This document shows, piece by piece, positions 1-4,794 of a stretch of 4,794 nucleotides of DNA. Made by a program: the position numbers and the translations under genes. The DNA is taken from IMG/VR virus record IMGVR_UViG_2671180609_000016, positions 1 to 4,794 of that record, one strand, 5' to 3'. Position 1 is the stretch's first letter. Each line of letters starts with the position of its first letter. The notes beneath the pieces are model-generated. The model made no database searches. It was not told the DNA's origin and was given only the letters and a program-made list of their open reading frames with translations. Origin of the DNA: a virus (Duplodnaviria; Heunggongvirae; Uroviricota; Caudoviricetes).

Positions 1-2640
1 GTCCTTCTGCACGCGCTGTATCTGCTGAATGGTGGCGCTCTGGTCTTCCAGCGTTTTACTGACCGTCTGTGTGATTTCATTGCGGGTTTCTGTGATGGTG
101 GTCTGCATTTCCGCCATCTCGTCCTTCAGCTGACTGTTGTCAATCTCTGCCCACAGCGCCTCTGCCAGATGCGTTTTTCCTATCTTTTCCCGGAAAAGTT
201 CCAGATAGCCCGCAGCATCATTGCTCGCCCGTCCACTGGCTTCCACAAACGCAGATTTACCCACCAGGTTGACGCTGCGCACATAAAACCAGAAATCCTT
301 TCCGGGCTTAATGTGCGGACCGGAGACACTCCACTGACTGCCGGTCCCCAGATAACGGGCAGAGGTTTCCACCTGTGCGGCGTCTGCAATTTTTGCCTCC
401 GAAAACCAGAACTCAAACTGCACCGTCGGGTCATAAATGGTCAGTTTCGGGACTGCCGTTATCTGAAAATACCCCGGCGTCAGTTCAACACCGGCAGGCG
501 CTGCCGGTGCGTTAATCCGGAACGTGGTGGTGGCGGGTTCGCCCTGCTGGCCATAGCTGTTAATCGCCCTGACCGTCAGGGTGTATTCCCCGAGAGGCAG
601 GCCACTGAAACGGTGCTCCGTATCGGCAGTGATGGCGGTGGTCACCAGACGGCTGTCTTCTCCGCTTCCGCTGGTCAGGCGCAGACTGAAGCGCACACCC
701 TTCACCACCCGCGGCGTGTCCCATTTCGCCTGTGCCAGATACTGACCGTCAGCCGCGCTCACCTCCACTGTCAGGTGCTGCACTGCCGGTGGAATAACGC
801 TGTTCAGGGTGCCTGACTGCGGCTCAAAGCTGGCCCCGTTATCCACGATGGCTTCTTTTTCCGGTACGTGCTGCACCGCCGTGATGGCAAAGGTGCCGTC
901 CGTGTTTTCCCGGACGGAGACACAGCGGAACAGGCGACGACGCAGTGACGGCAGGGAGAGTCCCCATACACCGTATGTCTCCACGCCATCAGGCAGGGTG
1001 CTGACCTGTATCCGGTCCGGCGCGGGGTGTGCAGTGATGGCCACGCTCACCGGCTTACCGCTGCCGTTAATCAGGTTCACCGTGGCGGCACCGGTCTCCG
1101 GCAGGGTCACCTCACGGTCCAGTGTCAGGGTGCGGCTGGCGGCATCGATGGACAGGATACGTCCGCCGGTCATGGTCCCGGCATAGTCGTTATCACAGAT
1201 TTCAATAATGTCACCGGGTGTGTGACGCAGCCCCTGTGACCCGAGCGTGAAATCCACCGTCTGCGTTTCCAGCAGTCCGGTCTTTATCACCCACAGCCCG
1301 GCACGGTGGGCCTGACCGCGACTGGTGCAGCCGAACGCATCCATCTTCAGCAGGTTGCGTCCGTAGCGCAGTATGGCTTCCGGGTCTTCCACCAGTTCCG
1401 TGGAGGTCTGCCAGCCGTTCTGCGGGTCGGTGTAATTCACCTCCACCGCCGTGTGGCGGTCCTTCAGGGCGCTGAAGCTGTAGCGAAACCCCACGCCGTT
1501 ATCATCCACCACCACATCACTGCTGGTGTACGGCCACACCACATCTGACGGACGGTCCTGCACAAACGTCAGCGTCTGCCCGTTCCATACCGGCATACAG
1601 CGCATCGCCGAGCAGAAATCACTGAGAACGTCCCACGCCTTACGCTGTTGTGACAGGTACGCATTGAAAGTCATCCGCGGCTCTGTGCCCCCGAAACCAT
1701 CCGGGACCGTCTGGTCGCAGTACTGCGCAATGGCATACAGCGCCCACTTGTCCACATCCGCCGCCCCCAGGCGTTTTCCCATGCCGTAGCGCGGGTGAGT
1801 CAGCATGTCCCACAGGCACCAGGCCGGGTTGTTGCTGTATGCCGGTTTCAGGCTGCCGTCCCAGATACCACTGTACGTGCGTTTTTCCGGGTCATAGTTT
1901 GACGGTACCTGGATGATGCGACCGCGGATATGGTAGTTCACCGTCATCTGCTGACCGCCAAACTGCTCCGCATCCACCTGCAGCCCCACAATCGCCGTGT
2001 TCGGGTAGCACTGTTTCACATCGATGATTTCGGTGTATGACGACCAGAGCGTCTTATTCTGCAGCTGGTCCGTGGTGCTGTCCGCCGTCTCCCTGACCAT
2101 CCGGATGTTAAAGGGGCGGGGAGGCAGATTATCCAGAATCACCGACGCCAGAAACTGCGAGGTGGTCTTGCCGTTAATGGTGACATCCTTTTCCGTCATC
2201 CATTTACCACCACGCTCAAGCTGAATCAGCAGGCGGACAGACGTCGGGTTACGGTCACCCTTTGAGGTGGTCTCCACCAGTGACTGCACCCCGAAGGTGA
2301 CCCGCAGGCGGTCAATGTTCGCGGACGTAATGGTGCGCGTCACCGGCTTTGCCTTCGTCACTTCCACGCCCAGTCCGGTTTCAGCTCCGGAGGACTCAAA
2401 GCCTTCAGGTGGTGTCTGCTCCTGCTCCCCGGCGCGCCAGACCGCTGTCACACCATGTATCACAGGATTACCGTCCGTGTCCGTCAGCGGGGTTTTGTTC
2501 ACCAGGATACTCTGCAGCCCCTTCACCGGACCTTCAATCGGCCCTTCACCAATCGCATCAATCACGCTCATCATCTGCGTGGACTTAAGATTGTCCTTTG
2601 CCTCAACCGGCGTGTGCGCCCTGCCGCCACCTTTGCCCAT
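1..2640 (-). CDS. J: Host specificity protein J (central tail fibre / tail tip protein), N-terminal 880 codons; the 3' end runs off the window at position 1
   Basis: ATG at 2640..2638 on the minus strand. Hand translation of 2401..2640 gives [80 protein letters not shown], closely matching the lambda gpJ N-terminus as I recall it. I also hand-translated 2161..2400 and 1..540 in the same frame with no stop (e.g. [50 protein letters not shown]). The track lists no stop-terminated minus-strand ORF in this frame, consistent with one open frame reaching the window edge. SD-like AAGGGTGAG sits 4-12 nt upstream of the ATG. Confidence 0.95.
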
Positions 2641-2643
2641 TGT

Positions 2644-2652
2644 CTCACCCTT
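2644..2652 (-). promoter_or_regulatory. Ribosome-binding site for J (AAGGGTGAG, about 7 nt before the ATG)
   Basis: Minus-strand sequence reads aaagggtgagaca-ATG; purine-rich GGGTGA-type Shine-Dalgarno at appropriate spacing. Confidence 0.5.
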
Positions 2653-2671
2653 TACTGTGATAACTGTTACG

Positions 2672-2704
2672 CACAAAAACAACAGGCATCCCGGAGGATG
2701 CCTG
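2672..2704 (-). terminator. Intrinsic-terminator-like hairpin plus U-tract in the same orientation as the tail genes, ending about 30 nt upstream of the J start codon
   Basis: Minus-strand reading: CAGGCATCC-TCCG-GGATGCCTG (9-bp perfect stem, 4-nt loop; plus-strand 2683..2704) followed directly by TTGTTTTTGTG (plus-strand 2672..2682). Confidence 0.5.
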
Positions 2705-2838
2705 TATCATGACTGAATAAAAATTCTGAATATCTTCACATTTTCTGTACGCCCCCGTGGCAGATATCATTCCCGGGCGTTACAGTTTTTTCGGGCCAAT
2801 AAAAACAAAACTCCCTGTGGTTAATCTTCATTTTCTGT

Positions 2839-2876
2839 TCCCGCAGCCTTCGGTCACTGCGGGATTTTTTCGCTTT
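2839..2876 (+). terminator. Intrinsic-terminator-like hairpin plus T-tract in plus-strand orientation, abutting the stop codon of I
   Basis: Plus strand: tCCCGCAG-ccttcggtca-CTGCGGGa (8-bp stem 2839..2846 / 2857..2864, 10-nt loop) followed by TTTTTTcgcTTTT (2865..2877). On the minus strand the hairpin is followed by acagaaaatg, so it reads as unidirectional. Confidence 0.45.
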
Positions 2877-3556
2877 TATGCCTGCCGCCCGATAACCACC
2901 ACCTTCCCGTCACCGCCTTCATCACGGGTGCTGATGTCCTGGGAGATTCGCCGGGAGCCAACCAGCATTTCACCGTAAGGCACCGGCATCGGGTTCCCCT
3001 GGGCAATCATGTTATCCAGTGAGGAAAAATACGTGTTCTGTCTGCCGTTATCCGTTGCGCGGTAATCCGGTGTTTTTGCCTTCGGGGCAAGCATCTGAGC
3101 CACACCACCCAGTATCATGCTGGCCCCCAGTGAAAACAGCATCGTGGTGGCAGAAAAACCACCGGCTGCCAGGGCTGAACCCCATAACGCCATTGATGCC
3201 CCGGCAGTGAAGAACGACCCCACGATGGCCGCCGCCCCCAGCACAATCTGCAGTCCGCCCTTTCCGGCTCCGGCCAGTCGCGGCACAATATGGATGACCG
3301 CCCCCTCACCCAGAGGTTCGTGAAGACGGGCGTACACCGCCTCCGGTGCCGTGTCCTCACCGCGAATACGTATCTGGTACCAGCCTTCGTTCATCTGACG
3401 GCGGAATCCCGGCACCTGTAACGACAGCGCCCGGATGGCCTCCGCTGCCGTGTTCACATACAGGCTGAGGCGGCGGCCAAATCGTTGCAAATCCCCGTGA
3501 AGGCAGATGCGTGCCAGTGGCGGTGACGCCAGACAGAATGCGTTCGTCGTTGCCAT
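2876..3556 (-). CDS. I: Tail tip assembly protein I (226 aa): ubiquitin-like N-terminal domain ending in Gly-Gly, then a Gly/Ala-rich hydrophobic segment
   Basis: Track ORF 2876..3556 (-). N-terminus MATTNAFCLASPPLARICLHGDLQRFGRR matches lambda gpI (MAATHTLPLASPGMARICLYGDLQRFGRR as I recall it). Stop TAA at 2878..2876 verified by hand. Start ATG at 3556..3554; SD-like GGGAGAGG at 3575..3568. Confidence 0.93.
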   Translation of the reverse strand: MATTNAFCLASPPLARICLHGDLQRFGRRLSLYVNTAAEAIRALSLQVPGFRRQMNEGWYQIRIRGEDTAPEAVYARLHEPLGEGAVIHIVPRLAGAGKGGLQIVLGAAAIVGSFFTAGASMALWGSALAAGGFSATTMLFSLGASMILGGVAQMLAPKAKTPDYRATDNGRQNTYFSSLDNMIAQGNPMPVPYGEMLVGSRRISQDISTRDEGGDGKVVVIGRQA

Positions 3557-4197
3557 TTTTCGGAATACCTCTCCCGTTTACTCAGTTGTTCAGGCAGATG
3601 GTGAAGCAGTTCACCGTTGCCGCAGTATATGGCGGCATGATTGGCCACCGATGCGCCAAAGCAGCACAGCAGGATATCGCCAGGCTGTGCGGAAGGCAGG
3701 GAAATCCTGTAAAAACCAGTCGCCTCCATATTGTCCAGGTACAGGTTCTGACCATTGCGCCACCAGTCATCCTCACGCTCAAAATCCGGCATATCAGTCC
3801 CCGCCAGATGGTATGCATCCCGGAACAGCGTGTAACAGTCCGTCACCCCGTGTTCAAAGCGCCGTCCGGTCAGGTGCGGAACGCAGCGGAATTTGTGAAT
3901 GTCACCCTGGCTGACCAGCCACCAGGGCAGTGCGCTTTTTATCTGCAGCCGCCGGTCAGCCTCGCTCAGCCAGGGCAGACCACCGGGATGACTGTGAACC
4001 AGCGCCACAATCTCCCCCGACATCTCTGCCCGCAGCCAGTCTTCCGGTGCGATACGAAAATACGCCTCCGGCTCTGCGGAAATATTCACACACGGCAGAT
4101 ACCGCTCCCCCTCCGGCGTGCTTATCACGAAGCCGCACGACTCCGCAGGCGCACACCGCCGGGCATGCGCCAGAATCGCTGATTCAGTCTGTGTCAT
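3454..4197 (-). CDS. K: Tail tip assembly protein K (247 aa): N-terminal MPN/JAMM (JAB) metallopeptidase-like domain plus C-terminal NlpC/P60 cysteine-peptidase-like domain
   Basis: Track ORF 3454..4458 (-) in the same frame. I place the start at ATG 4197..4195 (MTQTESAILAHARRCAPAESCGFV...), because the 87 codons upstream are Arg-rich, overlap L in another frame and do not resemble K. JAMM-type motif H-S-H-x7-S-x2-D (HSHPGGLPWLSEAD; His codon verified at 3996..3994). NlpC/P60-type catalytic Cys in GVTDCYTLF (codon 3837..3835) with downstream NHAAIY / LLHH histidines. Stop TGA at 3456..3454 verified. Confidence 0.9.
   Translation of the reverse strand: MTQTESAILAHARRCAPAESCGFVISTPEGERYLPCVNISAEPEAYFRIAPEDWLRAEMSGEIVALVHSHPGGLPWLSEADRRLQIKSALPWWLVSQGDIHKFRCVPHLTGRRFEHGVTDCYTLFRDAYHLAGTDMPDFEREDDWWRNGQNLYLDNMEATGFYRISLPSAQPGDILLCCFGASVANHAAIYCGNGELLHHLPEQLSKRERYSEKWQRRTHSVWRHRHWHASAFTGICNDLAAASACM
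3568..3575 (-). promoter_or_regulatory. Ribosome-binding site for I, embedded in the 3' end of K
   Basis: GGGAGAGG about 11 nt upstream of the I ATG; this stretch also encodes ...KRERYSEKW... of K. Confidence 0.4.
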
Positions 4198-4207
4198 AAA
4201 CCGGGAT

Positions 4208-4794
4208 TTACTGCGAAAGTTTATTGATGGAAAGGAAACCGCCAAAATTAGCCACCATGCCGCGCATCTCACACCCGCGCATGCACTTGCTGCATCTGTC
4301 CTTACGGATATCCGTGGTGGGGTTGTCGAACTCATCCGCCACCGCAGGACCGTTATACCCGCATTCATCTCCCCGGTAATCCCACATACAGGTGTTCGCC
4401 AGCATGATGCGACCAGGAAACAGCGCCCCGTCCGTCTCCGTCGGTGTTGCCAGCACAAACGAGGCCGTCATGGCCGTCAGCTCTGACATCTGCTCCACCA
4501 CCCACCGGTCAGTCAGCTCCTGCTCCGGGTCGGCCTCCGGATTGCCTGCCACAAAGTTCACCGCATCCAGAAAACGCGCATACACCCGGCGGCGGACCAC
4601 CGTGGCACCCACCAGGCTCTGCAAATCCTCCGCCATCCCGGTGACAAGACCGAACAGATTGGACACCGTCAGCGACGGGCGGGCACTGCTGCCCTTTCCG
4701 TTCATCTCAAAGCCGCTGCCCTCAATCGGGTACGCCTGATATTCACGCCCCTGCCAGGTCACCGGCACCCCTTTTTCATTCAGCTCATTGCAGA
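4208..4794 (-). CDS. L: Tail tip protein L, C-terminal about 195 codons; the 5' end runs off the window at 4794
   Basis: Track ORF 4208..4768 (-); its 'start' is an internal GTG (Val in ...CNELNEKGVPVTWQGREY...) and the frame stays open to the window edge. Matches lambda gpL (...FFCNEQNEKGEPVTWQGRQYQPYPIQGSGF... as I recall it). C-terminal Cys cluster C-x22-C-x2-C-x3-C. Stop TAA at 4210..4208 verified; K ATG follows 10 nt downstream on the minus strand. Confidence 0.93.
   Translation of the reverse strand, partial: CNELNEKGVPVTWQGREYQAYPIEGSGFEMNGKGSSARPSLTVSNLFGLVTGMAEDLQSLVGATVVRRRVYARFLDAVNFVAGNPEADPEQELTDRWVVEQMSELTAMTASFVLATPTETDGALFPGRIMLANTCMWDYRGDECGYNGPAVADEFDNPTTDIRKDRCSKCMRGCEMRGMVANFGGFLSINKLSQ

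Follow-up and report, generated by a model that had tools for sequence, protein, structure and literature searches.

The window, by which we mean the whole 4,794-nucleotide stretch of viral DNA analysed here, carries part of a tail operon in the order L-K-I-J on the minus strand, with K and L placed upstream of I by their Pfam domains. An annotated O157:H7 prophage locus is collinear with the window without gaps at 95.5% identity, and genes were named from Pfam matches together with the RefSeq annotation of this locus. The features of the coding strand are listed below in plus-strand coordinates, so that minus-strand elements read from high to low numbers.

1–2640, minus strand: gene J (tail tip attachment / host specificity protein), N-terminal 879 codons, running off the window (Pfam FNIII-A_GpJ, Phage-tail_3 and Ig_J; RefSeq annotation of the collinear locus)
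2640–2638, minus strand: ATG start codon of J
2641–2671, minus strand: leader of J with a Shine-Dalgarno-like GGGUGAG (2650–2644), read from the sequence
2681–2672, minus strand: U-rich tail TGTTTTTGTG (RNA UGUUUUUGUG), directly abutting the stem
2691–2682, minus strand: 3′ arm of the hairpin, GGATGCCTGT (RNA GGAUGCCUGU), read from the sequence
2695–2692, minus strand: hairpin loop TCCG (UCCG), closed by C-G, read from the sequence
2705–2696, minus (coding) strand: 5′ arm of the hairpin, ACAGGCATCC (RNA ACAGGCAUCC), read from the sequence
2876–3457, minus strand: gene I (tail assembly protein I), stop codon TAA at 2878–2876 (Pfam Lambda_tail_I; collinear RefSeq locus)
3454–4197, minus strand: gene K (tail tip assembly protein; Pfam JAB and NlpC/P60; collinear RefSeq locus)
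4208–4794, minus strand: gene L (minor tail protein L), 3′ part (Pfam Phage_tail_L; collinear RefSeq locus)

Neither a Q gene nor a late promoter lies within the 4,794 nt. The spacer between the stop codon of I and the start codon of J measures 235 nt and is found with 100% identity in several O157:H7 genomes. Among 5426 complete E. coli genomes it is present in 706, which carry a median of 3 copies each and never more than 9, and RefSeq annotates nothing under it there. The phage collection holds it in 129 records, mostly from Stx1- and Stx2-converting phages. A search of the whole window against Rfam on both strands, at E values up to 1, returned no family.

The hairpin upstream of J

An initial annotation, made from the letters alone, had proposed an intrinsic-terminator structure in sense orientation between I and J, and the sequence is as described there and conserved. 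The stem (2705–2682) consists of 10 uninterrupted base pairs, six of them G-C, around a 4-nt loop; it had rightly been called perfect, but the 9 bp first reported are the inner part of these 10. The tail UGUUUUUGUG, on the strand that codes for I and J, contains seven U in ten positions with two G interruptions and leaves a gap of 31 nt to the J start codon, in agreement with the distance of about 30 nt given earlier. The two computational checks suggested at that stage, folding energy and terminator scoring, both came out in favour of the structure: the hairpin by itself folds with −18.8 kcal/mol, its 51-nt context with −19.9 kcal/mol (z = −3.8; 0 of 200 shuffles as stable), and it ranks top in a terminator scan of the window. 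A rough d'Aubenton-Carafa-type score, computed with modern energies, is +15.

No other perfect inverted repeat with a short loop in the window is as long as this hairpin, and only 1 in 1000 dinucleotide-preserving shuffles of the window held a comparable site, for which we required a GC-rich stem of 9 bp or more without mismatch and 6 or more T among the next 10 nt. The plus-strand copy of the hairpin is followed by ATCATGACT (AUCAUGACU), without a T run, and as a terminator it would therefore work in one direction. Judged by its structure, the element at 2705–2672 is a well-formed intrinsic (Rho-independent) terminator, and it is from this anatomy that we infer termination itself. Another perfect inverted repeat, with a 9-bp stem and a 3-nt loop (CACCGGCAG / CTGCCGGTG), was noticed at 489–509 inside the J coding region; no T tract comes after it.

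An antisense sRNA gene shares the spacer

The initial annotation recognised the hairpin in the spacer but missed the antisense sRNA gene that fills most of it. The elements assigned to this gene, together with a candidate regulatory site, are as follows.

2778–2870, plus strand: homologue of the Hfq-dependent sRNA PasB of EPEC and of EcOnc22–24 of strain Sakai, 5′ end predicted (alignment, probe match)
2840–2846 and 2857–2863, plus strand: arms CCCGCAG and CTGCGGG of the pasB-like terminator, with a 10-nt loop and followed by ATTTTTT at 2864–2870 (inverted-repeat search)
2765–2770, plus strand: predicted −10 element of the pasB-like gene, TATCAT where EPEC has TATAAT (from the alignment; the generic promoter scan made no call)
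2725–2740, no strand given: CRP-like site TGTGA-N6-TCAGA (TGTGA-AGATAT-TCAGA in the window), between the hairpin and the pasB promoter (half-site conservation)

PasB is an 83-nt Hfq-dependent sRNA of EPEC E2348/69, encoded on the minus strand of NC_011601.1 at 1466343–1466261. This position falls into the I-J spacer of the EPEC prophage PP6, between the stop codon of I (1466255) and the start of J (1466496), and the RNA is antisense to both genes. When the spacers of EPEC, Sakai and the window are aligned, the sRNA body, the seed region, the terminator and the −10 region are clearly homologous, and the Northern probe for PasB, AATCCCGCAGTGATCGCGGAGCT, nearly matches the minus strand of the window at AATCCCGCAGTGACCGAAGGCT. 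The pasB-like gene of the window is likewise antisense to the tail operon, its T tract ending at 2870, six bases from the I stop codon (2876). EcOnc22, EcOnc23 and EcOnc24 were described as Hfq-CRAC candidates of Sakai which are about 85 nt long on Northern blots and destabilised without hfq (Tree et al. 2014). We mapped them to the I-J spacers of the Sakai prophages Sp15, Sp14 and Sp11 (our loci L003, L008 and L007; NC_002695.2), and they appear to be the Sakai copies of PasB. The PasB publications mention neither this equivalence nor the promoter nor the sense terminator.

This mapping depends on the genome record. The published EcOnc coordinates refer to NC_002695.1 and are about 137–143 nt lower than those of NC_002695.2, a shift determined with AsxR and AgvB as sequence anchors (1.27 and 1.94 Mb) and inferred for the region from 2.17 to 2.90 Mb from the identical relative offsets of the three copies. 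Coordinates from the old record may thus mislead mapping on the current one. An assignment of the EcOnc22 CRAC peak to the antisense strand of the hairpin was rejected, as the shift puts the peak on the body of the PasB-like RNA. The hairpin is not part of the PasB-like sRNA either: it is found on the opposite strand and outside the sRNA coordinates, about 75 nt away in the same spacer, and the sRNA has its own terminator. Other phage-encoded sRNAs were excluded as occupants of the I-J spacer, namely AgvB and AsxR (both 3′ of PR′), HnrS, which equals EcOnc10–12 (elsewhere in the late region), PasA, PasC and PasD (near the lysis and Q genes), and PreS, LPR2 and 6S of lambda (at tL2a and PR′).

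About 40 nt next to the hairpin, upstream on the coding strand, are highly conserved among 14 spacer variants. A second hairpin does not account for this block, its GAAU/AUUC stem not being maintained across the variants. The block contains TGTGA-N6-TCAGA at 2725–2740, which we take to be a good match to the CRP consensus and hence a predicted site; its half-sites are invariant in the 14 variants, and the N6 between them is variable. The centre of the predicted site lies about 44.5 bp upstream of the predicted pasB start, a non-canonical spacing. The site would fit the behaviour of PasB, which is strongly lower in 'activating' medium, where Spot 42 is higher. Spot 42 is repressed by CRP. The pasB-like sRNA is probably under CRP control, with this sequence as the candidate site, and the conservation of the block beside the hairpin would be explained by the CRP-like site within it. 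We had first suggested that the block is the body of a sense RNA, and a CRP-like site for the pasB promoter is the better explanation.

The initial annotation had offered two uses of the terminator that require transcripts of local origin or a stable product, namely to stop read-through into J from a local promoter and to form the 3′ end of a short RNA. The first finds no source of transcription: the promoter scan called no sigma-70-like promoter on the coding strand anywhere in the window, the aligned spacer variants share no conserved sense −10 or −35 element, with a manual search giving non-conserved 7/12-type matches only, and a sense promoter would not fit into the 19 nt that separate the CRP-like site from the hairpin. 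The sole local promoter is that predicted for the pasB-like sRNA, which points in the opposite direction.

The second use can be put more specifically, with the hairpin as the 3′ end of a regulatory, Hfq-binding sense RNA derived from late or I transcripts, which would include sequence fully complementary to PasB and could act as its sponge. An A/U-rich stretch, a hairpin and a U tail form the usual 3′ module of Hfq-dependent sRNAs, the upstream 40 nt are conserved, and terminators of antitermination-controlled operons in lambda and Stx phages do provide the 3′ ends of Hfq-binding RNAs, tL2a for PreS and tR′ for 6S and StxS. However, those terminators lie directly downstream of an active promoter, whereas the window hairpin has no evident sense promoter, none being found between the pasB cassette and the hairpin, and no reported Hfq signal. 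In the portions of the published tables available, the Sakai Hfq-CRAC data show only plus-strand, that is antisense, peaks in these spacers, the EPEC RIL-seq data contain no sense I-J intergenic RNA (both from uninduced cells), and the lambda RIL-seq data have no I-J entry. With the U tract interrupted and the conserved block better read as the CRP-like site of the divergently placed pasB promoter, we consider a sense sRNA unlikely.

Retention of the terminator among relatives and across phage groups

Close relatives were taken from 80 IMG/VR loci with a near-identical J N-terminus, to which the Sakai and EPEC loci were added, giving 37 distinct spacers. In this set the hairpin and its T tract are retained while both flanks are exchanged. 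On the I side we found several pasB variants, a divergent antisense cassette (L033, L037) and an IS insertion, with an IS3-family transposase gene at the usual place of pasB in L077; on the J side there are at least three unrelated leader types, which start directly after the T tract, where the recombination breakpoints fall. Stem position 8/17 is U-A in the window, C-G in Sakai Sp15 and EPEC, and U·G in four intermediates, and one recombinant relative has a C·A mismatch there. Across 14 variants 97.9% of the stem cells are paired, but the column-wise covariation is only suggestive, because there is so little variation and 68 of 500 shuffles reach the same score. In L023 and L015 the hairpin module is swapped for an unrelated sequence with another hairpin (CCCCGGTATC / GATACCGGGG).

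A lineage comprising 17 of 73 close-relative loci carries, in place of the hairpin and the J leader, an antisense cassette for a Cu,Zn-superoxide dismutase and has no sense terminator before J. In L009, for example, the J-proximal half of the spacer has given way to the sodC-like gene with its own terminator and promoter region (positions 635–1500), and a truncated pasB-like segment remains. The hairpin would therefore seem to be dispensable at least in this lineage, and cargo insertions evidently favour the I-J junction.

The stem variation also bears on a short open reading frame that runs through the hairpin.

2710–2645, minus strand: short ORF across the hairpin, from ATG (2710–2708) to TGA (2647–2645) inside the J ribosome-binding site

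Ribosomes translating this frame could melt the terminator and couple to initiation at J, which would make the element a translation-coupled attenuator. The ATG is invariant in the 14 variants, in the leader types of the window, EPEC and Sp15 no stop codon interrupts the frame before it has crossed the hairpin and reached the ribosome-binding site or start of J, and lambda (L002, about 243–316) has small frames too, one of them reaching from TGATG on the I stop to ATGGGTAA on the J start. But the ATG is part of a palindromic TCATGA, and the compensatory changes in the stem are non-synonymous, which argues for selection on RNA structure and not on a peptide. Since the frame stops directly after the T tract (GCA TAA) in several variants and no Shine-Dalgarno sequence precedes the ATG, the ORF is probably incidental, and attenuation coupled to its translation is hardly credible.

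We also surveyed distinct I/J junctions of four J types for a sense terminator within 150 nt upstream of J, and used two coding windows as controls. To count, a site needed a mismatch-free stem of 6 bp or more including 4 or more G-C pairs, a loop of 3–8 nt and at least 5 T in 9 nt.

O157-type J: sense terminator at 29 of 32 distinct junctions; 1 and 0 hits in the two controls
lambda-type J: 4 of 4 distinct junctions; control hits 0 and 0
HK97/N15-type J: 59 of 59 distinct junctions; control hits 1 and 3
T1-type J: 14 of 15 distinct junctions; control hits 3 and 0

Among close relatives, it is again the sodC lineage that forms the main exception. As the stem sequences are unrelated between phage groups, this evidence is positional and not column-wise, and for a conserved element it argues strongly, more so than the column-wise covariation. 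We know of no earlier quantification of the near-universality of an I/J terminator across lambda-, HK97/N15- and T1-type tail modules.

Individual phages illustrate the pattern. Gifsy-1, mEpX2, HK225, Serratia phage Stoker and Klebsiella phage 020009 each have their own GC-rich hairpin and T run just before J, as do the T1-like phages Shfl1 and Sushi. The Erwinia phage Midgardsormr38, in which I and J are 8 nt apart, has no such hairpin, nor do the Burkholderia and Stenotrophomonas phages sampled, in which the two genes overlap. In lambda, the 60-nt I-J gap contains AAACCGCC-UGCG-GGCGGUUU followed by UGUCAUUU at about 15463–15482, which neither of the two lambda records annotates. The hairpins of lambda and Gifsy-1 resemble that of the window in position, about 20–40 nt before J, in orientation and in their loop of the type U-N-C-G closed by C-G (UGCG in lambda; UCCG in Gifsy-1 and the window); they differ in their unrelated stems, their weaker T tracts and their spacers of 60–61 nt, which hold the hairpin only.

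In two phages the GenBank depositors have labelled the equivalent hairpin as a terminator: HK225 (JQ086371, 15508–15532), with a rho-independent terminator upstream of the central tail fiber (J) gene, and the Klebsiella phage Sushi (KT001920, 16441–16463), with a terminator between the I-like and J-like genes. Both share junction, orientation and build with the window element, that is a GC-rich stem (8–11 bp), a short loop and a T run before the J ribosome-binding site; they differ in having unrelated stems and uninterrupted T tracts. The upstream insert of HK225 is small and protein-coding, whereas that of the window is an antisense sRNA gene, and Sushi is a virulent T1-like phage in which a promoter-like element follows the terminator. 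The hairpin of the window is thus an ordinary, already recognised feature, whose equivalents are annotated at the same junction in other phages, and not the peculiarity as which it had first been treated. Since its near-universal presence includes T1-like virulent phages, the existence of the terminator alone does not point to a prophage-specific function.

Some observations from the survey stand apart. A −10-like element, TATAAT or TACAAT, occurs about 10–15 nt after the terminator in Shfl1 (L105, about 610–660) and Sushi (L106, 606–650), and J in the T1-like virulent phages may start a separate transcription unit. The scan of genome contigs gave 10 loci only, several of them apparently lambda DNA in unrelated assemblies. 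Six of these loci (L089–L094) have a lambda-type J in contigs labelled Neobacillus, Kitasatospora, Pseudomonas, Chromatiales, Aquabacterium and Chromatium; the I-J hairpin of lambda is present in the four of the six whose upstream flank was readable, and these loci are most likely lambda DNA contaminating the assemblies.

Possible roles of the terminator in the late operon

We favour, with a probability of roughly 0.6, the reading that the hairpin is an ancestral intra-operon terminator at the boundary between L-K-I and J, which halts polymerase lacking Q modification and lets the Q-modified enzyme pass. On the coding strand, an unmodified RNA polymerase would transcribe the hairpin and the U tail, pause and release, leaving J and the genes beyond untranscribed. 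Polymerase loaded with Q at the late promoter would ignore the signal, and lytic expression of J would be unaffected or mildly reduced. In the read-through mRNA, the hairpin would persist as a stable stem-loop that could block 3′ exonucleases. The override by Q and any physiological pay-off are, like termination, deduced from the anatomy of the site. Such a boundary mark would be ancient, as almost every enterobacterial phage with a lambda-type tail tip seems to have retained it.

Lambda Q-modified polymerase reads through intrinsic terminators efficiently, and the placement of the hairpin inside an operon normally transcribed by such polymerase, as initially annotated, is supported. Casjens and co-workers describe intra-operon terminators as common in the late operons of lambdoid phages, with roles still to be assigned; partial termination, or the blocking of transcription that is not antiterminated, has been suggested. 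The late-operon terminators of the P22-like phage L are likewise found inside an operon driven by a single promoter and antitermination, although in another type of phage and at another junction. The initial proposals, that the hairpin affects polymerase lacking antitermination or else defines an RNA end or stabilises the RNA, agree with these suggestions from phage genomics and are plausible. An I/J terminator makes this unexplained class of elements testable at one defined site.

Several points count against the preferred reading of a gate that distinguishes unmodified from Q-modified polymerase. The U tract is broken by G (UUGUUUUUGUG), the sodC lineage does without the hairpin, and the covariation within the close family is too thin to carry significance by itself. 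It also weakens the case that the window offers no coding-strand promoter to supply unmodified transcription in the lysogen. To our knowledge, T1-like virulent phages have no Q-type antiterminator, and their retention of the terminator weakens it further. The main function may thus be to punctuate the operon or control dosage, and not to act as a gate that depends on Q.

The hairpin could accordingly be an element that sets gene dosage or mRNA ends during lytic growth irrespective of Q modification, either as a partial attenuator lowering J mRNA in relation to that of the upstream tail genes or as an exonuclease barrier or processing landmark stabilising the upstream message. Partial termination is one of the two roles proposed for intra-operon terminators, the virulent T1-like phages have a terminator at the same junction with a promoter-like TATAAT next to it, and no coding-strand promoter was found that would need insulating. 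A parallel is offered by the ant moron of P22, located just 5′ of the tailspike gene and thought to modulate read-through from the late promoter into it. There, too, independently expressed genes including an antisense RNA lie directly upstream of the gene for a receptor-binding protein, but the phage type and the junction are different and the role is unproven. Attenuation may, however, be small if Q-modified polymerase passes intrinsic terminators efficiently, and the sodC-type relatives manage without the hairpin. We regard such a dosage or mRNA-end function as possible though rather improbable, a weight it owes to the missing coding-strand promoter and to the terminators kept in T1-like phages.

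A more far-reaching variant would make the terminator an active regulatory point instead of a passive mark, at which some of the late transcripts end or are trimmed during induction to yield a stable RNA, its 3′ part perfectly complementary to PasB, so that PasB is turned off and the dose of J is set. We are doubtful of it. If it were true, the near-universal retention of the terminator (59 of 59 junctions in one group) would reflect selection for control of the host-range protein, and the lysogeny-phase sRNA PasB/EcOnc22–24 would be switched off in O157 and EPEC prophages.

With regard to the history of the spacer, the spacers of lambda and Gifsy-1, in which the hairpin stands alone, support an insertion upstream of a terminator that already existed. 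In the O157/EPEC lineage a small cassette would have entered between the I stop codon and this terminator, bringing the antisense pasB/EcOnc22–24 gene together with a promoter and a terminator of its own and a probable CRP site; this is the simplest history suggested by the sequences. Two outward-facing terminators would now bracket the spacer and confine transcription begun inside it. The same arrangement could be taken to mean that the hairpin co-evolved with the pasB cassette as an insulator, blocking divergent transcription from the pasB promoter region into J, and the two do co-occur in most O157/EPEC-type loci. Yet a hairpin occupies the same place in lambda, Gifsy-1 and the HK97/N15- and T1-type phages, which are free of pasB, so that it predates the cassette, and no conserved divergent sense −10 element was found. 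An origin as pasB insulator is largely refuted by these comparisons and in our view very unlikely. In Shiga-toxin and related prophages, PasB/EcOnc22–24 is thus apparently encoded in a cassette that has an outward-facing terminator at either end and is probably under the control of CRP, a layout that informs how prophage sRNA genes can enter structural operons without disturbing them.
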